Made by a program: the position numbers and the translations under genes | In this document: positions 47,175 through 63,686 of the stretch, piece after piece | Layout of the letters: the number at the start of each line of letters is the position of its first letter | Numbering within the stretch: position 1 is the stretch's first letter | NCBI GenBank assembly: GCA_040756135.1 | Contig: JBFLZS010000007.1 | Coordinates: 3,072 to 67,071 of the forward strand | DNA length: 64,000 bases | Direction of reading: 5' to 3' | From: Nitrospirota bacterium | Lineage (GTDB): Bacteria > Nitrospirota > Thermodesulfovibrionia > Thermodesulfovibrionales > SM23-35 | The notes under the pieces: model-generated | What the model was told of the DNA's origin: nothing | The model's database searches: none | The model's input: only the letters and a program-made list of their open reading frames with translations

Positions 47175-47612
47175 ATGGACATGCCCGGATCGGACATGAA
47201 TCCCGTTAGATGTTTACTATCTAACAGGATGAATGGCGGTAGCCTGTTTACACTCATAATCTGGCTGATTGTCTTGCTCATCCTTTCTGTGGTGCATATG
47301 CCATCCATTAAAATTGGACTGGGAATGTTTGATAAGATTACCCATTTTATCCTTTACGGTATAACCGCCATATTGTTTTTAAGTGTCTTAAGACGGAGAT
47401 TAAAAACAAAACTGATTGGCATCTTTTTTGCAATATTACTTTCATCCCTCTATGGGCTTATGATCGAGATCGTTCAATCATTTACATCGTATCGAAACTT
47501 TGAATTTTCTGACATTCTGGCAAACACCATTGGTGCAACAGCCTTTGTAATGATAAATTATCTAAGGCAATGTTTAACCCCAAACGAGACCCACTTGCTC
47601 CTTGTACCGTGA
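47175..47612 (+). CDS. VanZ-like membrane protein
   Basis: DKITHFILYGITAILF and SDILANTIGA motifs. The start may be a downstream ATG. Confidence 0.75.
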   Translation: MDMPGSDMNPVRCLLSNRMNGGSLFTLIIWLIVLLILSVVHMPSIKIGLGMFDKITHFILYGITAILFLSVLRRRLKTKLIGIFFAILLSSLYGLMIEIVQSFTSYRNFEFSDILANTIGATAFVMINYLRQCLTPNETHLLLVP

Positions 47613-47635
47613 TGCTAATTTCAGAAATTGACTAA

Positions 47636-47664
47636 TTGACAAAATGACATCCTTTGCATATAAT
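47636..47664 (+). promoter_or_regulatory. Consensus sigma-70 promoter for the first TA cassette
   Basis: TTGACA (47636-47641), a 17-nt spacer, TATAAT (47659-47664). Lies 27 nt upstream of the ATG at 47691. Confidence 0.7.
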
Positions 47665-47690
47665 AAACAAAAAATACAATAAAAGACAGT

Positions 47691-47954
47691 ATGCTTATAA
47701 CCGTAGACAAGAGGGGAAGTATCAATATACCGAAAGCGCTTCGGAAGGAACTTGGAATTGAAAGCGGCTCCTATTTGAACTTGGAAGTTGAGGAAGGAGG
47801 AGCCATTGTGCTCCAGCCGGTATCTGTTTATCCATCAATCAGGCTAAGCAAAAAAGGACTTTCCAAACTTGTGGAGGCGCGGAAGAGTGGTAAGGGGACA
47901 TTGCCGGAATGGATGGTCAGGGAAATAGAAAATGCCGAAACTCATCCCGAGTAG
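47691..47954 (+). CDS. AbrB/MazE/SpoVT-family antitoxin
   Basis: ITVDKRGSINIPKALRKELGIESGSYLNLEVEEGGAIVLQP swapped-hairpin motif. Overlaps the next ORF. Confidence 0.8.
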   Translation: MLITVDKRGSINIPKALRKELGIESGSYLNLEVEEGGAIVLQPVSVYPSIRLSKKGLSKLVEARKSGKGTLPEWMVREIENAETHPE

Positions 47955-48234
47955 GAAGTTTCTCGATGACGTTGAAGCGTTCCGTTCCAATGCAATAGTA
48001 AGAAAGAAAATAGCTAAAGCATTAGGCCTGCTTGAAACAAATCCTTTCCGTCCCGGACTGAACCTTGAACGAATTGTCAATGATCCGACAGCATGGTCAA
48101 TAAGAGTTGATAGAAGATACAGGATATCATTTGATCCTGCAAGATTATTGCCTTCGGGAAGTCCTGATTGGTCAGCTGATATTTTTTTACTCCGTATTCT
48201 TGATCATGACGATTTATACAAACATCCACGGTAA
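47932..48234 (+). CDS. RelE/ParE-superfamily toxin
   Basis: 100 aa with the pattern NPFRPGLNLERI..WSIRVDRRYRISF..LLRILDHDDLY. Overlaps the antitoxin gene by 23 nt. Confidence 0.65.
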   Translation: MPKLIPSRKFLDDVEAFRSNAIVRKKIAKALGLLETNPFRPGLNLERIVNDPTAWSIRVDRRYRISFDPARLLPSGSPDWSADIFLLRILDHDDLYKHPR

Positions 48235-48301
48235 TGAACCCCCATTTGAAGAAGGACTGAGGAAGACGATAGAATGGGATAAAAGCACTGGGAAAAGGTA
48301 A
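48231..48301 (+). pseudogene. 3'-terminal remnant of an NAD-dependent sugar epimerase/dehydratase gene
   Basis: Translates to GNEPPFEEGLRKTIEWDKSTGKR. Compare the C-terminus of the UXS-like gene at 51629 ([15 protein letters not shown]). No upstream gene body is present. Confidence 0.55.
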
Positions 48302-48325
48302 AAGTAGAGAAAAAGAGGGTTAAAT

Positions 48326-48847
48326 ATGGAAGATAAGGCCGTAGAAAGGGTATTCAAGGCAATAAACAAAATGTATCAAGACGGCACACTTAAAGATTAT
48401 GCCGTTGGCGGGGCAGTAGCCACCATTTATTATACGGAGCCTTTTGCCACTAAAGACATAGATATATTTTTTATTCCCATAGAAAAAGATAAGATAATCC
48501 TCTTGACTCCGTTCTATGATTTTTTATTAAAAAAAGGATACAAGACATACAAAGAATACATTATGATAGGGGAGATACCAGTTCAATTTATTCCGGCGGC
48601 GAGTGAATTAGAAAGGGAAGCGGTTGAAAAGGCGATTTCCGTAAAGTATAAAAATCTATCGGTTAAAATTTTAAGACCTGAGTATTTGGTCGCCATATTT
48701 TTGAAGGTTTACCGGCCCAAAGATAGAGATAAATTGATAAAGCTTTTAGACCAGGCAAAAATAGACAAAACTCTCTTAGGGAATATTTTAGCCAGGCATA
48801 ATTTAGATAAAAAGTTTGATGATTTTATAGAGAAATATTATGGATAA
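48326..48847 (+). CDS. Minimal nucleotidyltransferase-fold protein (pol-beta superfamily-like)
   Basis: AVGGAVATIYYTEPFATKDIDIFF fits the GG-x(n)-DxD NTase signature. Confidence 0.5.
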   Translation: MEDKAVERVFKAINKMYQDGTLKDYAVGGAVATIYYTEPFATKDIDIFFIPIEKDKIILLTPFYDFLLKKGYKTYKEYIMIGEIPVQFIPAASELEREAVEKAISVKYKNLSVKILRPEYLVAIFLKVYRPKDRDKLIKLLDQAKIDKTLLGNILARHNLDKKFDDFIEKYYG

Positions 48848-49070
48848 TCAGGTTTCCCGAAATCAAAAAGAAGTTAAAAAATACCGAACGAAAATATTTA
48901 AATCAAAGGAAGAATGTCGCCGGATATTTGCCAAAGAGCCATTTGAAAAAAAGATAAAAACGGCCTTTGAGTTATATCGGCGAGCCAAATATTTGAAAAA
49001 ATTTAAACCCCTTATACTACGCTCTAACGCTATGCGCTCTACGCAATGCGATTTGAATTGTCAACAATGA
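48840..49070 (+). CDS. Small basic protein overlapping the NTase gene
   Basis: 76 aa, K/R-rich, with an 8-nt overlap with the upstream gene. No motif recognised. Confidence 0.4.
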   Translation: MDNQVSRNQKEVKKYRTKIFKSKEECRRIFAKEPFEKKIKTAFELYRRAKYLKKFKPLILRSNAMRSTQCDLNCQQ

Positions 49071-49183
49071 AGATTTGACCTCCATGACATTCCCCACTCT
49101 GCGAGTAGCATCCAGCATAGAATTTATAATTATATAATTATGATACAATGAGAGTATAACGATTCTATAACTGTGGAGGATCT

Positions 49184-49429
49184 ATGGGCTTAGCCGTCGA
49201 CTATAAGAAAGAGATAATCAATATCAGCAGAGACTTGCCGAACGATAAGTTAAAGGTATTGATCAATTTTGCGCAGTTTCTTAAAGAAAAAGAAGAAGAG
49301 TTCTCATACACGGATATCTTAGACAGTGCTGAATATGTGAAAGCATTAAGAAAGAAACAGGCAAAAAAAGTGAAGACCGGAAAAAGATTTATCGCAGAAC
49401 TTATTGAATGGCAAAAATCAAACTCCTGA
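49184..49429 (+). CDS. VapB-type antitoxin (DUF2281-like)
   Basis: LPNDKLKVLINFAQFLKEKEE motif. Overlaps the PIN gene start. Confidence 0.6.
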   Translation: MGLAVDYKKEIINISRDLPNDKLKVLINFAQFLKEKEEEFSYTDILDSAEYVKALRKKQAKKVKTGKRFIAELIEWQKSNS

Positions 49430-49802
49430 TAGACACCGACATATTCATTGATGCACTGAAGGAAGTAAGACCCGCTATGGAATTATTCAGATCAAAAGAG
49501 ATTTTGTTATACTGTTCAATCCTAACTAAAAAAGAACTCCTGTCAAAGCGGGGACTGAAAGATTCTGAAAGATGGAAAATAATGGATTTGCTCTTAAAAA
49601 CCAGAGTGCTCAGAATAGATGACCATATCAGCCGGAAATATTTTACCTGATGAAAAAGTATGGTGAAAAACAGGATATGCTTATCGATTATCTTATAGCA
49701 GCTACAGCATGGGCAAAAAATCTGCCGCTTCTTACAAGGAACAGGAAACATTTTGAGCATATTGAAGAAATAAAACTTGTCCCTGCATATGATGCCGACT
49801 AA
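49408..49802 (+). pseudogene. vapC: PIN-domain toxin VapC, disrupted by a frameshift
   Basis: The N-terminal part (LLIDTDIFIDAL) stops at the TGA at 49648-49650. The C-terminal part (LIDYLIAATAWAKNLPLLTRNRKHFEHI) continues in another frame from 49650 to 49802. Confidence 0.75.
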
Positions 49803-49858
49803 AAATTGCACATGAGAGTTATGCAATGTTAGAAACAACGTCCCCAAAAGTCATCCCT

Positions 49859-50010
49859 AGAAAAACCAGATAAATTCCATTGCGAAGCAATGACTTCCAG
49901 TTCAGAATGAACTCAATTCCAGAGCGTAGCTCTACCTTCCATTCCAAAGGAATAACTTGATAAACCAGATAAACGAAAATGTCTCATGTCAAGGTGCGAC
50001 CCTATAAGGC
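49859..50010. repeat. About 150-bp repeat block, copy 1
   Basis: agaaaaaccagataaattccattgcgaagcaatgacttcc...ttgataaaccagataaacgaaaatgtctcatgtcaaggtgcgaccc. Almost identical by eye to 52308-52463. Preceded by the 30-mer caatgttagaaacaacgtccccaaaagtca (49824-49853). Confidence 0.9.
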
Positions 50011-50182
50011 GCATCATATTTTGAAAGGCTGATTAGCGCTTGTAAGCTTGGTGGAAAGGATGGGAAAAAGTAGCCTGTCCCCTTTTCCTGCCCTGTTGGT
50101 GATGGATTTCGGATATGAGTATTGTATAATAGGTGAAGTGTCAATGATATTTTAAATCTGGGGAGTAAGGAGGGGTTGGCGT

Positions 50183-50389
50183 ATGATATTAATCAAATTC
50201 AATCCAGAGGACGATGCAAAGGGGGCTTTTCTTCTTAGTAGGACAGGATCGATTCTATGTTTACCTGAAGATACCTATCTTTGCGAGGAAGATCAACTTA
50301 AGATTTTTAACAAAAATAACATTCCTTACCGCATTGTCTCAATCGTAGGTTCTAAACCGGCCTATTCCGAGAAAGTAGCTACACTGTGA
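50183..50389 (+). CDS. Hypothetical small protein, first gene of a two-gene cassette
   Basis: 68 aa, with GGAGG 8 nt upstream. Its stop overlaps the next start. No motif recognised. Confidence 0.45.
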   Translation: MILIKFNPEDDAKGAFLLSRTGSILCLPEDTYLCEEDQLKIFNKNNIPYRIVSIVGSKPAYSEKVATL

Positions 50390-50715
50390 AATTTGCCTAT
50401 CGCTTCGATCTCTATCTTCCTTTGAAATATAATGATGGAAGAGATATCGAACCAGAGAAATTTCAGATTACACGCCGGGAACTCGTTTCCAGGTTTGGTG
50501 GTTTAACCTGGATTGCCAATGTAGGAAGTCCCAGTATCTTTGGTTTTTGGAAAGGCAGACATCGAGAGTACCAAGAAAATAATGACCTCTTCATCGTATA
50601 TACCGACCGCCTGGAAGAGCATAAGCGATTTTTTAAACAATATAAGGAAGTTCTGAAAAAACGATTCGAACAAGAAGAGATTTTTATAGCTGTAGAAGAA
50701 ACTGAGATTATTTGA
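50386..50715 (+). CDS. Hypothetical protein, second gene of the cassette
   Basis: 109 aa, translationally coupled to the upstream ORF. No motif recognised. Confidence 0.5.
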   Translation: MKFAYRFDLYLPLKYNDGRDIEPEKFQITRRELVSRFGGLTWIANVGSPSIFGFWKGRHREYQENNDLFIVYTDRLEEHKRFFKQYKEVLKKRFEQEEIFIAVEETEII

Positions 50716-50810
50716 GCTATCTTTCAATGACTCAACGACTTTCTGTTCGACGCTAAGACATGTTTCATGACGCTACGACGCTAAGACCCTATGACTGTTC
50801 GTTTGCCTCT

Positions 50811-50854
50811 TGACAAAGGGCCTTTTAATGGGTGACAAAGGGCCTTTTAATGGG
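50811..50854. repeat. Perfect 22-bp tandem duplication at the truncation point of the UXS-like gene
   Basis: tgacaaagggccttttaatggg appears twice (50811-50832, 50833-50854), followed by tgacattac. Confidence 0.9.
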
Positions 50855-51629
50855 TGACATTACTTTTCCTTTGTATGTTGAAGTTGATGAGATTTATAAC
50901 CTTGCCTGTCCTGCCTCACCTATTCATTATCAATTTGATCCAGTACAGACAACAAAAACGTCAGTTCATGGGAGTATTAATATGCTCGGTCTTGCAAAAC
51001 GTGTAAAGGCAAAGATTTTTCAGGCATCTACAAGTGAAGTATATGGAGATCCAACAGTTCACCCTCAACCCGAGACTTATTGGGGAAATGTAAATCCCAT
51101 CGGGTTAAGATCATGTTATGATGAGGGGAAAAGATGTGCAGAGACCCTCTTTTTTGATTATCATCGACAACATAAATTAAAAATAAAAGTAGCACGGATT
51201 TTTAATACTTATGGTCCAAGGATGTATCCAAATGATGGAAGAGTTGTAAGTAATTTTATAATGCAGGCATTACGAGGAGAGGATTTAACAGTGTTTGGTG
51301 ATGGAAAACAGACGAGGAGTTTTTGTTATGTGAATGATATGATTGATGGATTAGTTAAACTTATGGATAGTCCGGATGATTTTATAGGTCCGGTGAATTT
51401 AGGAAATCCTAAGGAGTTTTCTATTTTGGAACTTGCAAAGATGGTGATTAAGTTAACAGGTTCAAAATCAAAAATTGTTTTCAAACCTTTACCTCCAGAC
51501 GATCCAATTCAGCGAAAACCAGATATATCTCTTGCAAGAGAAAAACTGGGCTGGGAGCCGGAGATTCCTTTTGAGGAAGGACTTAAGAATACCATAGAAT
51601 ACTTTAAAACTCGCTATTTTTCTTTCTAA
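50832..51629 (+). pseudogene. UDP-glucuronate decarboxylase (UXS)-like SDR lacking its N-terminal Rossmann segment
   Basis: Homology begins at [22 protein letters not shown] and continues through [16 protein letters not shown] and RIFNTYGP. The usual roughly 60 N-terminal residues carrying the GxxGxxG motif are absent. Confidence 0.75.
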
Positions 51630-51634
51630 TTTTT

Positions 51635-51934
51635 ATGCCAAAAATAGTTGACTTTGTAGTAGTTTTTGATGATGGTGTAAGGAAGCGCCATTACCATGAA
51701 ACTGAGAAGGGTAAGGTTACATATTTCGCTGTTCAATTAGAAATAGAAGTTAAAGGTGAATGGAAGGTTGTGGTAAGATATGGTTGTTCTCATGGTTTTT
51801 CACACATTGATAAATATGATATTAGAGGAAATAAAACAAAAGAAATATTAAATCTGAGTTTTGAAAGTGCGTTGACTTATGGGGATTGGGATATTAACAA
51901 GAATTGGTTAAAATTTCTGAAAGGAGCGAGATAA
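51635..51934 (+). CDS. Hypothetical protein, first gene of a two-gene cassette
   Basis: 99 aa. Its stop overlaps the next start (TAATG). No confident family assignment. Confidence 0.5.
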   Translation: MPKIVDFVVVFDDGVRKRHYHETEKGKVTYFAVQLEIEVKGEWKVVVRYGCSHGFSHIDKYDIRGNKTKEILNLSFESALTYGDWDINKNWLKFLKGAR

Positions 51935-52197
51935 TGAGTAATTATACTGAATTTTTAGGAATGGTCTCAAGTGAATTTCATAGATATTTAATGGAAAACG
52001 AGGATTTTGCAGATAAAATACCCTCTAATGCTTTGATCATATTTCAAATTGAAGGTGAGGACGAGTTTAATAGATGGCATAAAGAAATATCTTTAAAAAA
52101 CAGAGAGAAAGATCAGCCTATAATATATATTTCTGTTAAAAAATGGAGAAAGCATTCTGCTATTGAAGAAATAGGACTGGCAGAGGTTGCAGCTTAA
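51934..52197 (+). CDS. Hypothetical protein, second gene of the cassette
   Basis: Start placed at MSNYTEF (ATG at 51934), with AAGGAG 7 nt upstream. No motif recognised. Confidence 0.5.
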   Translation: MSNYTEFLGMVSSEFHRYLMENEDFADKIPSNALIIFQIEGEDEFNRWHKEISLKNREKDQPIIYISVKKWRKHSAIEEIGLAEVAA

Positions 52198-52307
52198 TAA
52201 GATTGTTGTAACGATTCAATGACCCAAGACGTAACTGCTAAATGAAATGAGCCACGTGACTGTTAGACGATGACGCTATGACCCTGCGAGTTTCCCCTAA
52301 ATTAACC

Positions 52308-52463
52308 AGAAAAACCAGATAAATTCCATTGCGAAGCAATAACTTCCAGTTCAGAATGAACTCAATTCCAGAGCGTAGCTCTACCTTCCATTCCAAAGGA
52401 ATAACTTGATAAACCAGATAAACGAAAATGTCTCATGTCAAGGTGCGACCCCATAATAAGGCA
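52308..52463. repeat. About 150-bp repeat block, copy 2
   Basis: Same sequence as 49859-50010, with a few substitutions (for example gcaataacttcc versus gcaatgacttcc) and a small indel at the 3' edge. Confidence 0.9.
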
Positions 52464-52617
52464 TAAGGCACGACATCTCGAAAAGGGCCTGAAAAAGACC
52501 ATTAAATATTTTAAGAGTATAGTAAAATAAACACACATGTATGGGATAGCAGACATAATGGACTGAAAATATTGTATGTTTACCTAATTTTGTCTTTAAT
52601 AGGAGAAGGGAGGTAAG

Positions 52618-52869
52618 ATGGCAAGCGTTAGTGAGCTCCAGAGGCGGGCTGAAGCCGACGACCGCCTCTATGAGAGATATGCCAAATCGCTTGAAGATAA
52701 GCACAAAGGGGAATTTGTGGCTATCTCCAGAGATGGTCAAGTGATATGGGGCAAAGATGATGTGGCTGTCCTCAGGGAGGCGATAAAAAATTTTGGCTCT
52801 GGAAACTTTGCGTTGAGGCGGGTTGGCTCCAGGGCAATAGGTAAGTGGAGGAGAGTCGGTGATCAGTAG
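52618..52869 (+). CDS. Small protein paired with the aspartic protease
   Basis: 83 aa, with GGGAGG upstream. Overlaps the next gene by 11 nt. Confidence 0.5.
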   Translation: MASVSELQRRAEADDRLYERYAKSLEDKHKGEFVAISRDGQVIWGKDDVAVLREAIKNFGSGNFALRRVGSRAIGKWRRVGDQ

Positions 52870-53206
52870 TGCGGACTACCCTTATCTTAGGATTCGATTC
52901 CAAGTGAGATCACATACGGATACAGTATCGGCCTATATCGATACAGGCTTTGATGGTTATCTGGCCGTTCCTGCCGAACATAGTAAGAAGCTTGGGCCTG
53001 GGGATTACGTATCCCGATGGGAAATGGCTGACAACTCTTTTGCTCTATCGGAGGAATATCTGGGAATGGTCTGGATCGATGGAATTCAGAAGGAGATCTT
53101 TGCAAGGATAACCTGCTTAGGAGATGAGTTTCTCTTGGGTAGAGGCATCATCGATCAATTTCGAGTTGTCTTCGATCATGGGAATCATATCCAAGTATCT
53201 CTTTGA
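52859..53206 (+). CDS. Retropepsin-like clan AA aspartic protease (DTGF type)
   Basis: Contains AYIDTGFDGYLAVP and a C-terminal LLGRGIIDQF. About 115 aa, a typical single-lobe size. Confidence 0.65.
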   Translation: MISSADYPYLRIRFQVRSHTDTVSAYIDTGFDGYLAVPAEHSKKLGPGDYVSRWEMADNSFALSEEYLGMVWIDGIQKEIFARITCLGDEFLLGRGIIDQFRVVFDHGNHIQVSL

Positions 53207-53239
53207 GGAGCAGAGGGGAATGTTATTCTGAGATCAAAG

Positions 53240-53371
53240 GTGAGACTAAGAAAATCGTTCTGGCCTATGCTGGATACTTCAAGGGCTGAAAGGGAATTTG
53301 GATTTAAAGCAAAGACAAATTTTGAGGAAGGACTGAAAAAAACCATAAATTGGTATTTATCTAAAAGATAA
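53240..53371 (+). pseudogene. 3'-terminal remnant of a second NAD-dependent epimerase/dehydratase gene
   Basis: Translates to ..[33 protein letters not shown]. No gene body is present. It lies in the same frame, directly after the protease stop. Confidence 0.55.
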
Positions 53372-53579
53372 ACCCTTTGTTGCATAAATTGTTATAACCG
53401 AATAGGCTAAATCTATTGATACCAAGCATCTATGTCATTTTTGAAAGTTATCACAGGATTTCACTTTTAGTGAGCTTTATGAATAAAGCCTAATTTGCTA
53501 CAAACATAGAATTATCATCATTTTATGAGTTTTGTGTGCATGTATTATTGCAACAACAGGGTTCAGTTATAACAAGAAA

Positions 53580-53735
53580 AACTTGATTAACTAAATAAAC
53601 CAGAATGACTAATTGTCCTATGTCAAGGTGCGACCCATTGAAAGTTCCCGAAACCAAATAAACTTGATAAACCAGAGAAACTAAATAAACCAAATAAACT
53701 AAAATGTCAATAGTCAAGCCTGACCCCGAATAGGT
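53580..53735. repeat. Two degenerate copies of the 3' module of the 150-bp block, with 9-bp periodic ATAAAC motifs
   Basis: acttgattaactaaataaaccagaatgac..tatgtcaaggtgcgaccc and acttgataaaccagagaaactaaataaaccaaataaactaaaatgtcaatagtcaagcctgacccc. Confidence 0.7.
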
Positions 53736-53766
53736 GCGCACAAAAGTCAACAATGTTAGAAACAAC

Positions 53767-53829
53767 GTCCCCAAAAGTCAGTCCCCAAAAGTCACAACGC
53801 GTCCCCAAAAGTCACAACGTCCCCAAAAG
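53767..53829. repeat. Four copies of gtccccaaaag(tca) immediately upstream of the methyltransferase start
   Basis: gtccccaaaagtca gtccccaaaagtca caacgc gtccccaaaagtca caac gtccccaaaag. The first copy belongs to the 30-mer also present at 49824-49853. Confidence 0.85.
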
Positions 53830-53835
53830 ATCCCC

Positions 53836-54642
53836 ATGAAATACTTTGACCCAATAAAGCAACAATTGATTTATATCAAAAATAAAGCAGACTCAGATTA
53901 TTGGGATGCACATTGGGATTTAGATGAAAATATCAGAATGAAAATTCTGGGCACTAAGAATACGTTTGTTTCACGGATAACAAAGAAATATTTAAAACCC
54001 TCAGATGGATACATTCTTGAAGGGGGATGTGGAAACGGTGTTAATGTCGCTTCATTGTACAGTAATGGATATAAGGTGATAGGCATCGATTATGCAGAAA
54101 ATACTGTAAAAACACTCAATAAATATATCCCTGAATTAGATATCAGACTCGGAGATGTCAGAAATCTGCCATTCGAAGATGATTATTTCATTGGATATTG
54201 GTCTTTGGGAGTCATTGAACATTTTTGTGAGGGCTATGGTTCAATTGCACTAGAGATGTTTCGGGTTCTCAAGGATAGCGGGTATCTTTTTTTGGCATTT
54301 CCTTATATGTCGCCATTGAGGTGCTTTAAGGGAAGATTTGGTAAGTATGAATTATGGAAAAAAGAAATGAAATATGATTCATTTTATCAATTTGCCCTCA
54401 ATTCAGAGACAGTCATTCAGCATTTTAGAGATATTGGGTTTAAGCTAATAAGAGGTCTACCTTTCGATGGAATCAAAGGAACAAAAGATGAAGTAGCAAT
54501 TTTAAAACCAGTATTACAAAAATTATACGATTATAATAGCAGTATGTTGGCATTTAAAGGATTTAGAAAAGCTATTTCAATAATAATGTCTACTGTTGCA
54601 GGACATTGCATGCTATTAATTTTTAAAAAATCTTCCGTTTAA
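53836..54642 (+). CDS. Class I SAM-dependent methyltransferase
   Basis: Motif I ILEGGCGNGVN and motif LPFEDDYFIGYWSLGVIEHF. Start placed at MKYFDP (53836); the upstream part of the ORF is repeat DNA. Confidence 0.85.
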   Translation: MKYFDPIKQQLIYIKNKADSDYWDAHWDLDENIRMKILGTKNTFVSRITKKYLKPSDGYILEGGCGNGVNVASLYSNGYKVIGIDYAENTVKTLNKYIPELDIRLGDVRNLPFEDDYFIGYWSLGVIEHFCEGYGSIALEMFRVLKDSGYLFLAFPYMSPLRCFKGRFGKYELWKKEMKYDSFYQFALNSETVIQHFRDIGFKLIRGLPFDGIKGTKDEVAILKPVLQKLYDYNSSMLAFKGFRKAISIIMSTVAGHCMLLIFKKSSV

Positions 54643-54775
54643 TTATTCTAACATTGTTTTTCTTCTCTATCAGTTTTATGAAAAGAGTGACCATGAAGAA
54701 ATATCCTTCTTTGTTACAAATGAGGAAAGGGACAAGAAATAGTTCACCGTTCTCCGATAAAGTAATTCAAAGCTT

Positions 54776-56050
54776 TTGAAAACAACCTTAGAAATCATAG
54801 GCAAAAAAATCTTTGGTATTACCATAAATGTTACCGATACTTTCTGGATAACACTTAATATAGCAGTCAAGCTCATTTTAAGTATAATTGGAAGCATTTT
54901 ATTTGCAAGACTGGCAGGCGTTGAATATTTTGGAAAGTACCAATATATCTTTTCATTAAATAGTGTAGCAGCTTTATTAGTTTTGCCAGGTATTGAGAAT
55001 GCACTTATAAATTCTTCGGCAAAAAAGACTGAAGGTGACTTCATACTGGCGTTTAAAAAAAAGCTCAGCCTGTTACCTTTTTATATCCTTTTCTTTTTAG
55101 TTCTTAATTTTGCTATTTTTATTAATACAAAAAGCTTTGAATTGTTATTATCATTTTTTATTATATCTATACTCAGTGGTTATATTACAATCTTTGACTA
55201 TCATCTATCGTATTTTATTGGTAAGAGAGAATATAAGAAGTTATTCGTTTGTACGTTAATGACCTCGTTTTCATCAATCACTGTGGTGCTTTCTTATTTT
55301 TATTTCTCAAAATTTATATTCCACACTCATGTGCCAATATATGCTCTCATTGCTGTTCCGCTATTGTGGAATGCTTGCATTTATACTTACATATTCATTT
55401 ATATTAGGAAACGATTGATATATAGATCAACTTTTAGTGATGACTTCCTGCCATATGCTAAAAATCTTTCATATATATCAATTGTTAAAAATATTCAAAC
55501 AAATATTGATGAATTTTTAGTAGGAACATTTTTCAAATATGAATCTTTAACATTCTACAGTATAGGGAAAAAAATATTTATGAATTCCCTATATATATGG
55601 AGCATAGCTTTAAATTATTTGCAACCACGATTAGTTGGAAAGAGCATACAGGAAGCATATGGATATTTTAAAAAATATCTTAAGGTATATTGGTTAATAA
55701 TACCAGGCATTATTGTATTCTGTCTTTTATTGCCATCGATAATAAAGATTCTGTATGGGAAAGAATTTTTGGGGGCTTCAAACTATGCTCAATTATTTAT
55801 GGTTATTATTGTAATTTCTATCCCGGCGTTTTATTTAGAAGTGTACTACAAAGCCAATCAGCTCTATAGGATTCTCTATATCGGAAGAATGGTTGATACC
55901 CTCTCTCTAATTTCATTTGTCATATTTGTCTATCTATTTCATGCATATGGGATTATCCTTAATAGGATAATAGCCACGTTCATTCTCAGCTTGATATTAA
56001 TATTAATATTTTTAAGAAAAATGAAACAACAATCAACTCAAAAAATTTAA
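54776..56050 (+). CDS. wzx: Oligosaccharide flippase (Wzx / polysaccharide biosynthesis protein family)
   Basis: 424-aa polytopic protein. The N-terminal ILSIIGSILFARLAGVEYFGKYQYIFS is typical of Wzx-type flippases. Confidence 0.8.
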   Translation: MKTTLEIIGKKIFGITINVTDTFWITLNIAVKLILSIIGSILFARLAGVEYFGKYQYIFSLNSVAALLVLPGIENALINSSAKKTEGDFILAFKKKLSLLPFYILFFLVLNFAIFINTKSFELLLSFFIISILSGYITIFDYHLSYFIGKREYKKLFVCTLMTSFSSITVVLSYFYFSKFIFHTHVPIYALIAVPLLWNACIYTYIFIYIRKRLIYRSTFSDDFLPYAKNLSYISIVKNIQTNIDEFLVGTFFKYESLTFYSIGKKIFMNSLYIWSIALNYLQPRLVGKSIQEAYGYFKKYLKVYWLIIPGIIVFCLLLPSIIKILYGKEFLGASNYAQLFMVIIVISIPAFYLEVYYKANQLYRILYIGRMVDTLSLISFVIFVYLFHAYGIILNRIIATFILSLILILIFLRKMKQQSTQKI

Positions 56051-56053
56051 TCT

Positions 56054-57184
56054 ATGAATTTAATATTATTTTTTACGTATGGCGTATCACTGAGGACGTG
56101 GGATGAGACGGGGCTGATAGACAGAGAAATACTCATTTATAAAAAACTGCTTGAGAAAGGGATTAAAGTCTCGTTCATTACCTATGATGACGAATCTGAT
56201 TATCAATACCAGGATAAACTTGGCGATATTGAAATTATCCCTTTCTATGCTTTTGTAAAAAAGCCATCAAACAAAGTAATAAAGTTTCTTCAATCTTTTT
56301 TTTTACCATTTATATTGAAAAAACAATTGCAGAAAGCAGATATTTTCAAAACAAATCAGATGTCAATGACATGGGCGCCTTTATTGGCAAAATTAATATT
56401 TAAAAAAAAACTTATTATTAGATGTGGATTTGAGTGGTATCGGTTTCTTGTTAAAAAAAGTCAGTCGATATTTCTTAAATTGTTTGTATATATTACAGAA
56501 TTGTTTTCATATTATATTGCGGATGGAATTATATTAACATCGGAAAATGACAGACAGTATATAATTAAAAAATTTTACATCAAAAATTGGGAGAAAATAA
56601 AAGTTATCTCTAATTTTATAGATACAGATACATTTAAACCATTAGACTCCTTTCGAAAAAAGAACAATCATTTAATATTTATTGGACGGCTGACCGAACA
56701 GAAAAATTTATTGAATCTTTTTGAAGCTTTGAAAGATAGCAAATATTGTCTGGATATAATTGGAGATGGAGAGCTTAAAGAAAAATTGATAAATTATAGC
56801 GTTCAAAATCAAGTCCGGATAAATTTCTTGAGTAAGATCCCAAATAGTGAGATGCCCCATATACTAAATCAATATCATACTTTTATTTTTCCTTCGTATT
56901 ATGAAGGAAATCCTAAGGCATTACTTGAGGCAATGAGCTGTAGATTGGCTGTTATAGGAACAAATGTTGAAGGAATAAATAATGTAATAAAGCATAAAGA
57001 AAATGGTTATCTTTGCAAGACAGACAGCCAATCAATCAGAGACGCAATAGATGTTGTGATGGAGGATGAACTTTTGAGAAAACGCATGGGAGTTCAAGCA
57101 AGGAAATTTGTTATTAATCATTGCAGTATCAATGAGATAGTAAAAAAAGAAATCGATTTTTATACTACTGTCTTAAAGTGCTAA
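56054..57184 (+). CDS. Glycosyltransferase family 4 (GT-B)
   Basis: IFIGRLTEQKN and FPSYYEGNPKALLEAMSCRLAVIGT (E-x7-E region). Confidence 0.85.
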   Translation: MNLILFFTYGVSLRTWDETGLIDREILIYKKLLEKGIKVSFITYDDESDYQYQDKLGDIEIIPFYAFVKKPSNKVIKFLQSFFLPFILKKQLQKADIFKTNQMSMTWAPLLAKLIFKKKLIIRCGFEWYRFLVKKSQSIFLKLFVYITELFSYYIADGIILTSENDRQYIIKKFYIKNWEKIKVISNFIDTDTFKPLDSFRKKNNHLIFIGRLTEQKNLLNLFEALKDSKYCLDIIGDGELKEKLINYSVQNQVRINFLSKIPNSEMPHILNQYHTFIFPSYYEGNPKALLEAMSCRLAVIGTNVEGINNVIKHKENGYLCKTDSQSIRDAIDVVMEDELLRKRMGVQARKFVINHCSINEIVKKEIDFYTTVLKC

Positions 57185-57194
57185 GACAGACAAG

Positions 57195-57857
57195 ATGAAA
57201 TCTTTAATTAAAAGATTGCTCTTTACCCCCAAAATTGCAAAAAAAATTGTTAAACAGTTATTAAAAATTCATACCTTAAGCTACAATTATATTGGCACTT
57301 TTTCTATAGCAGCAGAAAATGGTCTTCATCCAAAACATAGACTCATGAACTATCATAAATTCTTTGTTGACAATGTTTCTGCGAACGACATGGTTTTAGA
57401 TATAGGTTGTGGCAATGGTGCCTTGACCTATGACCTTGCAAAAAAAACAAAGTATGTTTATGGGATTGATATTAATGCAAAAAATATAGAATATGCCAGG
57501 AAAAAATATAACACAAATAATATTACATATATAGTCGGAGATGCCACAGAATATGAATTTAATGATAAGTTTGATGTAATAGTTTTATCTAATGTATTGG
57601 AACATATTGAAAATAGAATTGATTTTTTATTGGAAATAGCCGATTTATCAAATATATTTCTGATTAGAGTGCCTATGATAAACAGAGACTGGGTAGTTTT
57701 ATACAAAAAAGAAATAGGGTTGCCATTTATGAGTGACCCCACTCATTACACAGAATACACTCTCGAATCATTTTTTGACGAGATGCATCAGGCAGGTTTG
57801 AAAGTAAATAATTATAGTATTCAATTTGGAGAAATATGGGCAAAGGTTTCAAAATAG
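57195..57857 (+). CDS. Class I SAM-dependent methyltransferase
   Basis: VLDIGCGNGALT and FDVIVLSNVLEHIENR. Confidence 0.85.
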   Translation: MKSLIKRLLFTPKIAKKIVKQLLKIHTLSYNYIGTFSIAAENGLHPKHRLMNYHKFFVDNVSANDMVLDIGCGNGALTYDLAKKTKYVYGIDINAKNIEYARKKYNTNNITYIVGDATEYEFNDKFDVIVLSNVLEHIENRIDFLLEIADLSNIFLIRVPMINRDWVVLYKKEIGLPFMSDPTHYTEYTLESFFDEMHQAGLKVNNYSIQFGEIWAKVSK

Positions 57858-59259
57858 CAGATTATTCACACAAAAAGATATTATTAGTTCAAACATTAAT
57901 ATGTTATTAAGTCAAAAATATTCTTATGTGATTTTAATATTAGGTGCTCTCATAATTGGTTCTCTTATAGTTGTAAGTTCGAATTTAATAATACTACCAT
58001 TCTTAGCCAGTTTGGTATTACTTTTCATTATAAAACCTCATATAGGTCTTTACACAATATTTCTAACAGATATTTGGTTCAGTTATCATGAAGGTCCGAT
58101 TTCTCGAAGAACAATTATTTTATTTTTTGTTGTATCAATTTATATGATTTATTTCTTTTATAAAAAGAAGTTTAAAATTGATAAAAAAGTAAATTATATA
58201 GTTTATACAATTTTTGTTTTATTGCTATGGGGATTGTTTACAGATTTTCTTATTAATAAAGTGCCCCTTAAAAACTTTTACGCAAGTTTTGCAAGATTGT
58301 GGTTGCCAGTTTTGATTGCACTTCTATTGTATTTTTTTATCGAAAAAGAGAAACATTTAGATAAATTTATTTATATAATTATTTTTGGAGTCTCTATTTC
58401 TGGGTTGATAGGAATTTTACAATTTTTCTGGGGCGGTGTTTTTTATGATATAGTGCCTCGCCCGGAAAATATGAACATAAGTAGCGGAGTTATTTTCGGA
58501 TTATCAGGGATGCCCCATATTTATGCTTCCCAACTCGCAAGTACTATTCCATTGATACTTTCAATTATCCTGTCGCAACATAAATTTAGGAAAATATTAT
58601 TAATTTCGTTTGCTATTTTGACAATTGCGTTGATCCTGACGTTTGTACGTTCCGCAATATATGGGTGTACAATCGGTATCATAACTTTATTCTTATTCAG
58701 ATTGAAAAAGAAAATTGCTATAAAGATCAATATCTTAATTGTTATTCTTCTTTTATTGTTTTCTGTGTTATCGGGAATGACTGAACACGGTAAAAGATTG
58801 TTTCAAGTAGAAGGGTCAGCTTTAGGGCGAATACCACTTGCAATATCTGCTTTTTATATTGCCAAAGACAATCCTTTTGGAGTAGGTAGAGGTAAATATA
58901 CAGAAGAAGTAGAAGAATATTTGTGGCAGTTAAAACGTTTTGAATATTACCACGTTGTTACAGTCACAACTCCACATAATCAATTTCTAAATGTTTTGGT
59001 ATATTGGGGCATTCCCGGATTTTTGTTGTTGCTCTTTTTTTATTATAAAATCCTTAAGCAAGTAAATATTATTAGAAAAACAACAAACAATGAATATCTA
59101 AAGACACTTAGCATTGGATTATTTTGTTCATATATTGCTTACATAATAAACTCCCTGTTTCATAATAATGGAGCTTTTACAGGTGATCCGTTTCATTGGT
59201 ATTTTATTGGATTGACCTTTTGTTTAATTAAATTGACAATTTACAATAAAAGACCTTAA
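57826..59259 (+). CDS. wzy: O-antigen polymerase/ligase-like membrane protein (Wzy type)
   Basis: Polytopic. LTFVRSAIYG and TPHNQFLNVLVYWGIPGF resemble Wzy_C motifs. The start may be the internal MLLSQKY. Confidence 0.75.
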   Translation: MEKYGQRFQNSRLFTQKDIISSNINMLLSQKYSYVILILGALIIGSLIVVSSNLIILPFLASLVLLFIIKPHIGLYTIFLTDIWFSYHEGPISRRTIILFFVVSIYMIYFFYKKKFKIDKKVNYIVYTIFVLLLWGLFTDFLINKVPLKNFYASFARLWLPVLIALLLYFFIEKEKHLDKFIYIIIFGVSISGLIGILQFFWGGVFYDIVPRPENMNISSGVIFGLSGMPHIYASQLASTIPLILSIILSQHKFRKILLISFAILTIALILTFVRSAIYGCTIGIITLFLFRLKKKIAIKINILIVILLLLFSVLSGMTEHGKRLFQVEGSALGRIPLAISAFYIAKDNPFGVGRGKYTEEVEEYLWQLKRFEYYHVVTVTTPHNQFLNVLVYWGIPGFLLLLFFYYKILKQVNIIRKTTNNEYLKTLSIGLFCSYIAYIINSLFHNNGAFTGDPFHWYFIGLTFCLIKLTIYNKRP

Positions 59260-59873
59260 TGGATTGTAAAAAATATCAGCCATCACATATTTATTTGCCA
59301 ATTGGTATCAAAAGATGGCATGCATATTGGACTCAGATAAATTATGTTTATAAAACGAAGGCTAAAAAGATTCTTGAAATAGGTCCGGGGAGAAGAGTGG
59401 TGACAGACTATTTAATAAAAGCTGGATTAGATATATCATCTTGTGACATAGACCCTAAAATAAAAGCTGATTATCATTGTAATTTAGAGGACATTCCTCT
59501 TGAAATGAGTTATGAATTGGTTTTTTGTTGTGAAGTTTTGGAACATATGCCATATGAGAAATTTTATCCGAGCTTAAAAAAAATATATTCTTTAACAACA
59601 AAATATGCATTAATTTCTTTGCCCCAACGCCATCACCTTTTTTATTTTAAAATTATAATTATGAATCGGACGCTATTTGAATTTAAATGGATAAAGCCTA
59701 TATTTAGGAAAAAACATATATGGGATGGTCAACATTATTGGGAAGTAAATGCAAAAGGTTATAGTGAAAATAAAATTAGAGATGATATTGAAAGGGTAGG
59801 ATTTAAGATATTGGAAGAAAAAACACACATTGAAAATCCTTATAACAGATTTTATTTGTTAGAAAAAATTTAA
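59259..59873 (+). CDS. Class I SAM-dependent methyltransferase
   Basis: ILEIGPGRRVVT and YELVFCCEVLEHMPYEKF. Confidence 0.75.
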   Translation: MDCKKYQPSHIYLPIGIKRWHAYWTQINYVYKTKAKKILEIGPGRRVVTDYLIKAGLDISSCDIDPKIKADYHCNLEDIPLEMSYELVFCCEVLEHMPYEKFYPSLKKIYSLTTKYALISLPQRHHLFYFKIIIMNRTLFEFKWIKPIFRKKHIWDGQHYWEVNAKGYSENKIRDDIERVGFKILEEKTHIENPYNRFYLLEKI

Positions 59874-59900
59874 ATCTATTTCCCTCTATTTAAATATATT

Positions 59901-60701
59901 ATGCCCAAAGTAAGTGTAATAATGGCTGTGTATAATGAGGAAAGATATGTTCAAAAGGCCATAGAAAGCATATTAAATCAGTCGTTTAAAGATATCGAAT
60001 TAATAATTGTCAATGATGCATCAACTGATGGCACTGGAGAGATTTTAAATCAATATAATGATGAGAGAATTATTATAATTAATAGCATAGAAAATATTGG
60101 CCGCGCAAAAGCTAGAAATTTGGCAATAAAAGCTTCAAGAGGTAATTACATTGCTATTATGGATGCTGATGATATTTCTATGATGCAAAGAATTCAAAAA
60201 CAGGTTGAATATTTAGAAGAGAATAGAAACGTTGCAATTTTAGGTACTGATTATTTTCCAATCGATAAAACTGGCAAAAGGATTCATGCAAAACTTTTAA
60301 TGCCTATTAACTCAAATGAAATAAAGAAAAGTGTTTTTAAGTTTAATCCATTTATTCATAGTTCTGTAATGATAAGAAGAACAGTCATTGAAGAATTTGG
60401 AGGCTATGACGAGCGCTTTGAACTTGCACATGACTATGAACTTGTTTTGAGGATTCTCAACAAACATGAAGGTTACAATCTGCCCGAAGAACTTGTTGCT
60501 TTTCGTATAGATAAAGAAAGACTTAATATCAAACGGGCACGAAAGCAAATATATTTTGCAATTTTAGCGAGATTAAAAGTTTTAAAAGAAGGTTTATATC
60601 CTTCAAAAAATTATATTTTTATTATAAATGATTTCATAAGATACATTTTCCCCTATTATAGTTTCTACAAGGGAAAATCGAAGATGAATCCTGCCTTTTG
60701 A
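59901..60701 (+). CDS. Glycosyltransferase family 2
   Basis: VSVIMAVYNEERYV, IIVNDASTDGT and IAIMDADDIS (DxD). Confidence 0.9.
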   Translation: MPKVSVIMAVYNEERYVQKAIESILNQSFKDIELIIVNDASTDGTGEILNQYNDERIIIINSIENIGRAKARNLAIKASRGNYIAIMDADDISMMQRIQKQVEYLEENRNVAILGTDYFPIDKTGKRIHAKLLMPINSNEIKKSVFKFNPFIHSSVMIRRTVIEEFGGYDERFELAHDYELVLRILNKHEGYNLPEELVAFRIDKERLNIKRARKQIYFAILARLKVLKEGLYPSKNYIFIINDFIRYIFPYYSFYKGKSKMNPAF

Positions 60702-60717
60702 TAATAGGAATGCAGGA

Positions 60718-61953
60718 ATGAAAGTTCTGATTTCCGCCTATGTATGCAGTCCTGCCTCCAGTTCGGAAGCAGAGGTAGGATGGCAATGGGTTAGCCGACT
60801 AAGTGAATTTCATGAAATTGTGGTTATAACAAAGAAGCCTAATTCATTAGAAAATGTACATAAATTAATTGAAAAAAAGAAAAGTCTACGATTTGAATAT
60901 TATGAGCTCCCAAGGATTTTTAATTTTCTCAGAGAAGGTGACATATGGCATTTCATCTATTATAATTTATGGCAAATAGGAGCTTATTTCCATGCGAGAA
61001 AATTAGTAAAAAAAGAAAACTTCGATTTAGTTCACCATTTAGTTTATGTAAATACTTGGCAACCAACATATATGGCATTTCTTAGAATCCCTTTTATTTA
61101 CGGTCCTTTAGGAGAAAATTCCCGTGTTCCTTACAGAATTGCAAAACATTATGGATGGAAAGTTAATCTCAGAGATACCATTATTAGTTTTGCAAGATAT
61201 ACAGGTAAAAACTTTAGTCCTTTGATGAGAACAGTCTATAAACGTGCATCAAGAATTATTGTTATTAACAGTCTTATTTATTCCAAAATGAGAGGCGCGA
61301 TTAAAAAGAAGACATTTATTCATCCTGCAGTTGGTGTTTCAATATCAAATACTCAGACAGAATATTCGAAGAAAAGAAATGAAAACGAATTCAAGATATT
61401 GTATATCGGAAGATTTGTGTATTTGAAATGTCCAGATCTTGCTTTAGAAGCTTTTCTTAAGTTTGCAGATGGACATGATGATGTTGAATTCACAATGATT
61501 GGTGGTGGCAAGATGCAAAGAGACCTCGAAAAAAATTTAGAAAAGCATAAAAATGCGAAGAAGGTTAAACTCATAGGATGGATAGATAGAAAAGAAGTTA
61601 CGGAATACATGAAAGAGTGTGATATATTTTTCTTCCCTACTTTTGAAGGCGGGGGCATGGTTATCCTTGAAGCCATGTCATATGGGAAGCCAGTAATTTG
61701 TTTGGATTTCGGAGGACCAAAGGACTTTGTAACTGATAAATGCGGGATCAAAGTTCCTGTGTCTAATAGGATACAAATAATAGCTGACCTTGCTGACGCT
61801 ATAGAAAAGCTTTATAATTCAGAGGACTTAAGACAGTCTATGGGAATTGCTGCGAGAATGAGGGTAGAAGAGTATTACACATGGGAGAAAAAAGTTGAGT
61901 GGATGAATAATGTTTATTTCGAGACTGTAGAAGTTATATCAAAACGACCATGA
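60718..61953 (+). CDS. Glycosyltransferase family 4 (GT-B)
   Basis: LYIGRFVYLKCPD and FFFPTFEGGGMVILEAMSYGKPVIC. Confidence 0.85.
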   Translation: MKVLISAYVCSPASSSEAEVGWQWVSRLSEFHEIVVITKKPNSLENVHKLIEKKKSLRFEYYELPRIFNFLREGDIWHFIYYNLWQIGAYFHARKLVKKENFDLVHHLVYVNTWQPTYMAFLRIPFIYGPLGENSRVPYRIAKHYGWKVNLRDTIISFARYTGKNFSPLMRTVYKRASRIIVINSLIYSKMRGAIKKKTFIHPAVGVSISNTQTEYSKKRNENEFKILYIGRFVYLKCPDLALEAFLKFADGHDDVEFTMIGGGKMQRDLEKNLEKHKNAKKVKLIGWIDRKEVTEYMKECDIFFFPTFEGGGMVILEAMSYGKPVICLDFGGPKDFVTDKCGIKVPVSNRIQIIADLADAIEKLYNSEDLRQSMGIAARMRVEEYYTWEKKVEWMNNVYFETVEVISKRP

Positions 61954-62591
61954 ATAGAATATATGCACTATATAAAAACTTTCGGCATCAATATACACTT
62001 TTTTATACTCGCCGCAGGGTAAAAGCAACAAAGCAATTCATAAAAGCACATGTAATGACTGATGGGACTATTTTAGACTGTGGTGCTCGACAAGGCAGTT
62101 TCAATAATGTTTTTAGAGAATTAAAATATGAAAAAATAATTGCTGCAGATCTTGATACCCAAGCTTTGGAAGTGAATACCGCAGATAAAAAGGTTTCACT
62201 TGACTTAGAAGAAAAGTTGCCTTTTCCAGAAGAATTTTGTGATTGTGTTTTTGCCGCTGAAATAATTGAACACTTGGAAAATCGTAGAGAATTTCTGATG
62301 GAATTATTTAGAGTATTAAAACCATCAGGAAATTTACTGCTTACAACTCCAAATAAAAGAAGTCTGATTGCATATTTTGACAGATTAATAGGCCGATTTA
62401 TTGAAAATGGTAAATGGAATGGTCATGATTTTAATCATAGATATGTATATGCGTTTGATGAAATTAGGGATTTATTAAGAAAAGTTGGTTTTAAAATTGT
62501 TGCAAGCGAAAGTTTCTACTTATTCTATGGACTTCCAATTAGAACTAAAACTTCCCTTGGCATGTGTACTTGGATAATGGCAAGGAAATAA
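61950..62591 (+). CDS. Class I SAM-dependent methyltransferase
   Basis: ILDCGARQGSF and CVFAAEIIEHLENRREF. Overlaps the preceding GT by 4 nt. Confidence 0.85.
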   Translation: MNRIYALYKNFRHQYTLFYTRRRVKATKQFIKAHVMTDGTILDCGARQGSFNNVFRELKYEKIIAADLDTQALEVNTADKKVSLDLEEKLPFPEEFCDCVFAAEIIEHLENRREFLMELFRVLKPSGNLLLTTPNKRSLIAYFDRLIGRFIENGKWNGHDFNHRYVYAFDEIRDLLRKVGFKIVASESFYLFYGLPIRTKTSLGMCTWIMARK

Positions 62592-62624
62592 GATTTCTTA
62601 AGTATTTATCATCATCTGAATATC

Positions 62625-63686
62625 ATGAAAAAAGTTTTAATGTTGGTCAATTGGGATGTTCATAAGGAAGATAATCGAAGTTATGTTCACCAATCTCCAA
62701 ATATATTTCCTCCAAATCAACAATACTGGTTCTTCAAACATTGGCCAGAAAAAGATATCGAGGTTGATGTAATCGATTTTTCAAAATTTCCCTTAATTCA
62801 CGCCATTGAAAAGAATATACTTCGATTTTATGTGATTCAAACTTTCAAAGCCTTATTAAAATTAAAGCAATATAATATTATCATTTCCCATGGGGCACAA
62901 AGTGCTATTTTTTCAGCGTTTATACGCTCTATCTTTGGCATCAAAAATCCACCGCATATCATTATAGATGTGGGTTGTCTTAATGGAGGTCGTTCAAGCC
63001 AACCTGAGCTTTCAATATTCCAATTTTCTATGAAGTCGATTTTAGGACTCATTTATCATGTGGGGTCACAGAAAGAACACTATGATAGGTATTTCCCATT
63101 TCTAGCAAAAAAGGCTTTTTTTGTTCCATTCGGAGTTGATACAGAATTCTTTAAACCTTTAAATGTTGAGCAAGAAGATTACATCTTATCAATAGGTTAT
63201 AAATTTCGTGATTGGTTAACATTAATTAATGCTTATTCCCAAATAAACACTAATACTATTTTAAAAATAGTTGGTCCTCGAGAGTTGAATATTGATTTGC
63301 AGGGTAATGTTCTTATTCAGCCTTATGTGCCAATAAATATCCTTAAAGAATTAATCGCCAAAGCAAAATTCATTGTTCTCCCTCTGATTAAGCTGCCTTA
63401 TGCCCATGGGCAAATGACCCTGTTGCAATCGATGGCTATGGGGAAAGCAGTTATTGTTACTAAAGTACCCTCTACAATTGATTATATAAATGATGGGGAG
63501 GATGCACTTTTTGTGAGGCTTAATGACGTTGATGACATGAGAAATAAAATAGAGTTTCTCTTGAATAATCCTGACGAAATATTCAGGCTGGGCGAAAATG
63601 CTAGAAAATCTATGGAAGATAGATTTTCTGAAAAGCACATGGCAGAGGCTATTTATCAAGCCTGTAAAGCCCTTAGCATAATTTAA
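62625..63686 (+). CDS. Glycosyltransferase family 4-like (GT-B)
   Basis: C-terminal LPLIKLPYAHGQMTLLQSMAMGKAVIVT and a typical GT-B length. Confidence 0.8.
   Translation: MKKVLMLVNWDVHKEDNRSYVHQSPNIFPPNQQYWFFKHWPEKDIEVDVIDFSKFPLIHAIEKNILRFYVIQTFKALLKLKQYNIIISHGAQSAIFSAFIRSIFGIKNPPHIIIDVGCLNGGRSSQPELSIFQFSMKSILGLIYHVGSQKEHYDRYFPFLAKKAFFVPFGVDTEFFKPLNVEQEDYILSIGYKFRDWLTLINAYSQINTNTILKIVGPRELNIDLQGNVLIQPYVPINILKELIAKAKFIVLPLIKLPYAHGQMTLLQSMAMGKAVIVTKVPSTIDYINDGEDALFVRLNDVDDMRNKIEFLLNNPDEIFRLGENARKSMEDRFSEKHMAEAIYQACKALSII

Follow-up and report, generated by a model that had tools for sequence, protein, structure and literature searches.

Gene content of the islet

We analysed a window of 64,000 nucleotides from a Nitrospirota bacterium (GenBank assembly GCA_040756135.1, contig JBFLZS010000007.1, positions 3,072 to 67,071) and focused on an islet of about 6 kb (47613-53372) in which, according to the open reading frame (ORF) listing, all plausible ORFs are small and lie on the + strand. 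The islet holds toxin-antitoxin (TA) and TA-like gene pairs, mixed with remnants of nucleotide-sugar genes. It is bordered upstream by a vanZ-like gene (47175-47612, +; PF04892, 7e-11) and downstream by a methyltransferase gene (53836-54642, +), the first of a low-GC Wzx/Wzy glycan cluster, and at 53.8 kb the GC content, about 40% up to there, falls to about 28%. An earlier note on this DNA had proposed six co-oriented two-gene modules between vanZ and the glycan locus, and ORF and family searches agree with that count. The source genome of the window, G000, is a 172-contig assembly whose contigs are labelled C1, C24, C75, C83, C97 and so on. It was compared with ten related genomes and with many metagenome contigs, the reference set having no genome of the same genus; below, G-labels stand for genomes and L-labels for single loci or contigs, some of them from metagenomes. 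An exact-protein look-up and a VanZ query against metagenomes returned no closer relative, and the best WzyC match in the metagenome scan was 77% identical.

Module 1 (47691-48234, +) couples an AbrB/MazE antitoxin gene (47691-47954; PF04014, 8e-11) with a ParE/RelE-like gene (47932-48234) that overlaps it by 23 nt and whose ParE match is weak (0.03, under the cut-off). Before it stands a sigma-70 promoter (47636-47664, +), predicted solely by its match to the consensus TTGACA-17-TATAAT at 12 of 12 positions. Module 2 (48326-49070, +) consists of a DUF2204-type nucleotidyltransferase (NTase) of 173 aa (48326-48847) and an overlapping basic protein of 76 aa (48840-49070). An NTase homolog with 77% identity occurs, together with an overlapping 61-aa gene, inside the polysaccharide locus of another organism; the 76-aa and 61-aa partners are equated by position, not by direct comparison. 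Module 3 (49184-49802, +) pairs VapB (49184-49429) with a VapC toxin of the PIN family; a 1-nt deletion near 49646 splits the toxin gene and inactivates it. The module shares 85% nucleotide identity with its counterpart in G004, where the VapC ortholog is intact and has 131 aa.

Module 4 (50183-50715, +) encodes proteins of 68 aa (50183-50389) and 109 aa (50386-50715). The pair itself stands as first described, but its 68-aa member is only a truncated partner and not a whole protein: it corresponds to the C-terminal domain alone of a 157-aa HU-fusion protein known from elsewhere. Upstream of the 68-aa gene we looked for a remnant of the HU domain and found none. The 109-aa protein is of a rare family, with 17 relatives among 5.8 billion proteins. 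In another organism, represented by a metagenome contig from the European Nucleotide Archive (L147, 7531-8330), the genes for the full-length HU-fusion protein and its 109-aa companion are inserted between trpD and trpC. Module 5 (51635-52197, +) associates DUF7718 (51635-51934; 6e-30) with DUF5647 (ending at 52197; 6e-29), and further copies are found in G017 and on contigs C125 and C127 of G000. Finally, module 6 (52618-53206, +) combines a DUF5678-like protein (52618-52869) with a single-lobe aspartic protease of clan AA carrying a DTGF motif (52859-53206; TIGR03698, 5e-10, under the curated cut-off).

The pairs recur elsewhere as units. Two of them, the NTase pair in a polysaccharide locus and the HU-fusion pair in a trp operon, are found co-oriented within the operons of unrelated organisms. 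As type II TA systems, VapB/PIN qualifies, with a broken toxin, and AbrB with its weakly ParE-like partner does so in part; the other four pairs have DUF or weak matches. Several modules appear to be decaying themselves, vapC being frameshifted and the HU partner truncated. Scans with PADLOC defence-system models found no match on the islet, and an Rfam scan of 47-54.5 kb found no relevant RNA family.

Remnants of nucleotide-sugar genes

Among the modules lies a 5'-truncated uxs gene of the UDP-glucuronate decarboxylase type (50832-51629, +), which matches PF16363 (3e-40) from profile position 74 and lacks about 58 N-terminal residues, including the Rossmann motif. The uxs gene of G011 is its syntenic ortholog; the two are 84% identical in amino acids over residues 59-313 of the G011 protein. 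G000 also has an intact uxs paralog (C1:98134-99066), which is 77% identical to the syntenic gene of G011, compared with 84% for the truncated copy. The truncated gene is thus nearer to the syntenic G011 gene than the C1 copy is, and it is therefore the native one. At its truncation junction we found a 22-bp tandem duplication (50811-50854, +). The 38 nt flanking the junction match a spacer of the G017 TA array at 92%, and the joint shares the tetranucleotide TGAC. The duplication and this microhomology look like the signature of illegitimate recombination at the cut.

The earlier note had also reported two orphan 3' ends of epimerase/dehydratase genes. We searched for such ends with a hidden Markov model (HMM) trained on 21 C-termini of short-chain dehydrogenase/reductase (SDR) proteins, using 100 shuffles of the islet as the null (top shuffle score 9.4 bits). 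Four matches scored between 12.6 and 64.5 bits, all on the + strand, all at the end of the profile, in frame and then followed by a stop codon. The strongest, at 64.5 bits, is the end of uxs itself (51462-51608). Orphan end no. 1 (48245-48301, +; FEEGLRKTIEWDKSTGKR, then stop) scores 17.9 bits over 48245-48286, is closest to the GDP-fucose synthase (fcl) type and is 73% identical to the C-terminus of G011 fcl. Orphan end no. 3 (52474-52530, +; terminating in LEKGLKKTIKYFKSIVK and a stop) scores 12.6 bits over 52474-52524, is of the uxs type and aligns to the C-terminus of G011 uxs. Orphan end no. 4 (53240-53371, +), of the fcl type, scores 50.7 bits over 53258-53362 and is 79% identical over 34 aa to residues 299-332 of the 335 of G011 fcl (E 8e-12). 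Hence, the truncated uxs and the epimerase nature of the orphan fragments hold, through alignments and scores above those of the shuffles, but the orphan ends number three rather than two, the additional one being that at 52474-52524.

The ancestral locus in relatives

The comparison with relatives, called for in order to find the ancestral locus, gave such a layout. In most relatives with enough downstream sequence the gene order is Wzc-TPR-WzyC-NusG-like-rmlA-rmlC-rmlD-rmlB-manB-manC-(ugd/uxs)-gmd-fcl, and these genes are followed by a TA array and then by variable glycan genes. The backbone is intact in G011, G004, G008, G024 and metagenome loci, so that an uninterrupted NusG-rmlACDB-manBC-uxs-gmd-fcl block is seen at this very position. 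In G000, vanZ comes after WzyC, and NusG-rmlACDB is found on contig C97, behind rplQ-galE. No fcl ortholog was found in the G000 contigs. Where relatives have their NusG-like gene, G000 has the vanZ-like one, an accessory gene here: none of the ten related loci has a VanZ match at this position. Since relatives are intact, NusG-rml has moved, the native uxs is cut and fcl is gone, the islet sits where the nucleotide-sugar block decayed. The earlier claim that the modules replaced polysaccharide-precursor genes is thus upheld, with relatives intact there; its companion, that they integrated at the 3' ends of epimerase genes, fares poorly, as discussed below. For annotation, this means that uxs is here a dead fragment, that fcl is lost and that the rml genes are elsewhere.

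Toxin-antitoxin arrays at the same junction

Rows of TA modules lie between the sugar genes and the variable wzx, glycosyltransferase (GT) and wzy genes across genera and metagenomes. The array of G004 has about ten modules (HigBA, DUF433, VapBC, HicBA, MNT/HepT twice, ParE, YoeB, RelE and others). That of G017 has seven to eight and ends directly before a methyltransferase-wzx-GT cluster (contig C64) that is 77-82% identical in nucleotides to positions 53836-58757 of the window. Shorter or partial rows are found in G003, G008, G011, L071, L079, L082 and L083. The order of modules varies from array to array.

The modules are far more similar between lineages than the backbone genes. Between G000 and G004, VapB and VapC are 89% and 85% identical in amino acids, versus 58% for WzyC; between G000 and G003, DUF7718, at the same locus in both, reaches 93%, versus 66% for WzyC. 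The same is true of pairs that do not involve the source genome: L082 and G004 share HicB at 91% and HicA at 83% (WzyC 54%), and L082 and G017 share an antitoxin at 95% and a PIN toxin at 86% (WzyC 62%). Overall, modules are 83-95% identical and the backbone 54-67%. In the most similar cassette pair (95% in amino acids), homology covers the promoter and the genes, and there is no common flanking site. Each module thus appears to bring its own promoter and to be self-contained, because the module 1 promoter matches the consensus at all positions and because the homology of this closest pair is restricted to promoter and genes.

The glycan cluster downstream of the islet, rich in methyltransferases and low in GC (27-33%), extends over 53836-63686; it is 77-82% identical in nucleotides to L046 (G017:C64), with WzyC at 67%. 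Such likeness between two genera points to the entire cluster having been exchanged horizontally in recent times.

Absence of integron sites

The layout of the islet had been likened to that of a cassette array, although no integrase was seen in the window. The latter observation is correct, as integron integrases are found only on other contigs of G000. Two of them are over the TIGR02249 cut-off and apparently intact (C83:6484-7815 and C75:1298-2446), and a third is degraded (C24:9090-10527); 24 of the 57 genomes of the family have IntI. The C83 integrase has a short cassette array with canonical attC sites, carrying a DNA methylase, a PIN pair and what we guess by eye to be a TIR-domain protein.

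We built an attC covariance model (R1) from seven aligned attC sites of the C83 array and of an array in G066. As a positive control, it recovered eight further attC sites in G000, including one at a distance of about 2.3 kb from the degraded intI, and in relatives it matched integron loci only, nearly always on the expected strand. A weaker attC match lies near a Y1 transposase gene on C34. In 47.6-53.8 kb, R1 found no site even with filters off and E values up to 10. It found none either in the related TA arrays or in 53 polysaccharide-locus sequences (498 kb), and a palindrome scan of the module borders found no attC-like palindromes. The islet thus has the small co-oriented cassettes of an integron, but neither an attC site after each cassette nor an adjacent integrase or attI. 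We therefore reject an integron array for the islet, on the strength of a family-specific model with positive controls and of the palindrome scan, and the cassette-array comparison falls with it. A search for dif-like sites, such as Xer recombination would use, also found none.

Spacer repeats and Y1 transposases

The spacers of the islet carry repeats. A motif of 30-35 nt, ATGCAATGTTAGAAACAACGTCCCCAAAAGTCA, occurs as a solo terminal-repeat motif at 49819-49853 (+) and again at 53748-53780, with variants ending in GACCC(C) at 49985, 52434, 53619 and 53703. All these copies point in one direction, and conservation of the motif extends to other genera. In G018 and on contigs C75, C41 and C62 of G000, motifs of this type form inverted repeats around Y1_Tnp genes of 320 aa; the terminal repeats of C41 and C62 contain GGGGTCAG, and C75 and G018 carry the variant GGGGACGT. 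Counted by eye, about 25 of 31 positions agree between the copy at 49819-49853 and the repeat of G018. The motif at 53703-53727 has an identical copy on C27 and is close to the repeats of C41 and C62. The terminal repeats of TIRYT genes, or TIRtrons, have a GGGGWSAS signature (Di Nocera 2013, PMC3733652), and Quentin et al. (2018, PMC6006769) equate the TIRYT class with subclass 2.1 of TnpA-REP, which has a DnaA-like domain. The genes found here, Y1_Tnp with terminal inverted repeats of the GGGGWSAS type, agree with a TIRtron; in the transposases themselves Pfam gave Y1_Tnp only (E up to 0.01), and their length of 320 aa suits the TIRYT class.

In the spacer before the glycan cluster (53571-53835, +) there are a GACCC motif (53619-53636), a 9-bp array (53652-53702), four copies of GTCCCCAAAAG and two motifs like terminal inverted repeats (53703-53727 and 53748-53780). 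The terminal-repeat motifs are flanked by 9-bp tandem repeats of the NNNATAAAC type. The islet also contains two copies of a four-hairpin element of 149 nt, A (49859-50007, +) and B (52308-52456, +), which are 99% identical. Copy A comprises four units of TTCCA plus a hairpin, 9-bp repeats and a GACCC(C) motif (49985-50002). Both copies are followed by a uxs-like end, that behind copy A being very degenerate and judged by eye. In G019 (C16, C57, C73 and C77) the element is dispersed, near-identical and often at contig ends, and compensatory changes set its stems apart from the G000 ones. Six compensatory pairs preserve the four hairpins in the G019 copies, with 98% of cells paired versus 25-43% when the partners are slid. 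The element fits something similar to a miniature inverted-repeat transposable element (MITE) or a repetitive extragenic palindrome (REP). A single long structured RNA was considered and rejected, since the whole-length fold is no better than shuffles (z -1.9 and -0.4) and support extends to the four short hairpins only.

Y1 genes of the TIRYT type stand beside an integron integrase in three genera: on C75 of G000 (204-1163), on L037 (5131-6099; G018) and on L040 (3450-4430; G054). This suggests that such elements prefer integron platforms. Elsewhere in G000 (C29:20780-21720), a pair of genes encoding 99 aa and 53 aa lies between two direct copies of a repeat of about 120 nt ending in AAGTCAAGGTGCGACACCGCAGGG, a repeat also present on C25 and C169.

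Discussion

We think that the islet is probably the decayed tail of a one-directional nucleotide-sugar operon (..uxs-gmd-fcl) at its junction with an exchanged Wzx/Wzy cluster, and that this junction is a recurrent collecting site for TA modules. An ancestral one-directional operon would have abutted a horizontally exchanged Wzx/Wzy cluster, and their junction may also have served as crossover zone for the exchange of that cluster. Self-contained type II TA and TA-like modules would then have accreted there, and may persist through addiction or by hitch-hiking. Only insertions in the direction of the operon are found, plausibly because these spare read-through into the glycan genes. A series of insertions and deletions, caused by recombination of the illegitimate or short-homology kind, would have removed NusG-rml, gmd and most of fcl, and their outcome would be the uxs gene cut at its 5' end and the three orphan SDR ends scattered among the modules. 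What we observed is the make-up of the islet, the gene order of its relatives, the return of TA arrays across genera, the greater identity of modules than of backbone and the lack of attC sites; the order of events, the part played by addiction and the agent of transfer are inferred. Several points weigh against such a reading. The relocation of NusG-rml rests on C97, which stops 88 nt past rmlB in an assembly of 172 contigs. The comparison included neither a same-genus genome nor reads, so that no insertion or deletion was directly seen. At 72-95% identity, the borders of modules cannot be mapped to a recombination site. And TA modules are also frequent elsewhere in G000, which tempers any idea of an enrichment at the junction.

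The islet could be an integrase-less attC cluster (CALIN) served by integron integrases encoded elsewhere in the genome, as the small co-oriented cassettes, the two IntI genes of C83 and C75, the degraded one of C24 and the frequency of IntI in the family might lead one to expect. Yet R1 recovers sites on which it was not trained, and the integron arrays of relatives, while returning nothing in the islet or in the 498 kb of related sequences, and the module borders are devoid of attC-like palindromes; we consider this explanation almost certainly wrong. One might also propose that integrative elements aimed at the 3' end of an SDR epimerase gene accreted in tandem, each bringing a replacement end and leaving the old stub behind. 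Islands at tRNA genes replace ends in a comparable manner. The three orphan ends and the uxs end are all on one strand and all at module borders, a uxs-like end follows both copies of the hairpin repeat, and one stub is also found within the G004 array. But the stubs, some fcl-like and some uxs-like, go back to different paralogs, with 75-78% nucleotide identity and no common exact core, the islet has no recombinase gene, and the arrays of G017, G003, G025, L082 and L079 have no stub at all. Because the stubs differ in paralog and most arrays are free of them, we judge end-targeting elements to be very doubtful.

The spacer repeats raise another possibility: that Y1 (HUH) transposases of the TIRtron type act in trans on the spacer motifs and 9-bp arrays and move or capture TA modules, which would produce an array without attC. 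The motifs of the islet match the inverted repeats of Y1_Tnp genes in G000 (C75, C41 and C62) and G018, they fit the published GGGGWSAS signature (PMC3733652) and they are uniformly oriented. The motif precedes the next module in seven of the eight spacers of the G017 array, and most of the other G000 matches adjoin TA pairs. Moreover, the DnaA-like domain of subclass 2.1 belongs to a type that binds repeats of 9 bp (PMC6006769), and such repeats here flank the motifs. However, the arrays of G004, G003, G008, G011 and most of L082 are devoid of the motif and nonetheless have modules in common; G017 is rich in motifs, but its Y1 gene is reduced to a fragment of 132 aa; in no case does the motif flank a module at both ends in two genomes; and this class of enzymes is not known to act on such repeats. 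TIRYT action on the spacer repeats is hence the most interesting candidate for a catalyst, contradicted by the motif-free arrays, and we regard it as unlikely. Going further, one might speculate on a second cassette system, independent of attC, in which TIRYTs with DnaA-like domains use the spacer motifs and 9-bp arrays as landing or exchange sites and place modules co-directionally; this we see as a long shot.

With decay of the operon tail as the preferred reading, the locus resembles several known systems. As in the junction remnants of O-antigen and capsule loci, for example the O-antigen loci of Yersinia and E. coli, truncated nucleotide-sugar genes border a low-GC exchanged Wzx/Wzy block and all genes run in one direction; here, however, a row of TA modules occupies the junction, and in many genera such a row returns at that place. 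Sedentary chromosomal integrons and CALINs with TA cassettes also have small, co-oriented, exchangeable modules in shuffled order, many of them TA pairs, whereas the islet lacks attC and an adjacent integrase and its modules seem to carry their own promoters. The pdif (Xer) modules of Acinetobacter plasmids are likewise small TA or accessory modules exchanged as discrete units between replicons, but in the islet we found neither 28-bp sites of the dif type nor sites paired in inverted orientation, its motifs being direct. As in TIRtrons (PMC3733652, PMC6006769), the spacer motifs copy the inverted repeats that surround Y1_Tnp genes in the same genomes, belong to the GGGGWSAS type, recur moderately often and are clustered; those of the islet differ in being unpaired, on the same strand and located in TA-array spacers beside 9-bp arrays.

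A fixed junction in a surface-polysaccharide operon thus gathers TA-type modules across many genera. These modules pass between lineages far faster than the neighbouring genes, and do so in the absence of integron sites even though the same genomes own integrons. The locus offers a tractable comparative system in which to ask by what means small addiction modules travel and why long one-directional operons are where they end up. It also suggests a possible function for the poorly understood domesticated single-strand-DNA transposases and their repeats, a class for which we know of no gene-moving role.

Other genes accompany the TA modules. Genes of the S23-ribosomal/bAvd four-helix-bundle-like type (PF05635), with a Pfam match for the L153 gene only and the others recognised by eye, recur within the polysaccharide loci, beside TA modules, in L014, L016/L045, L019, L022 and L153.

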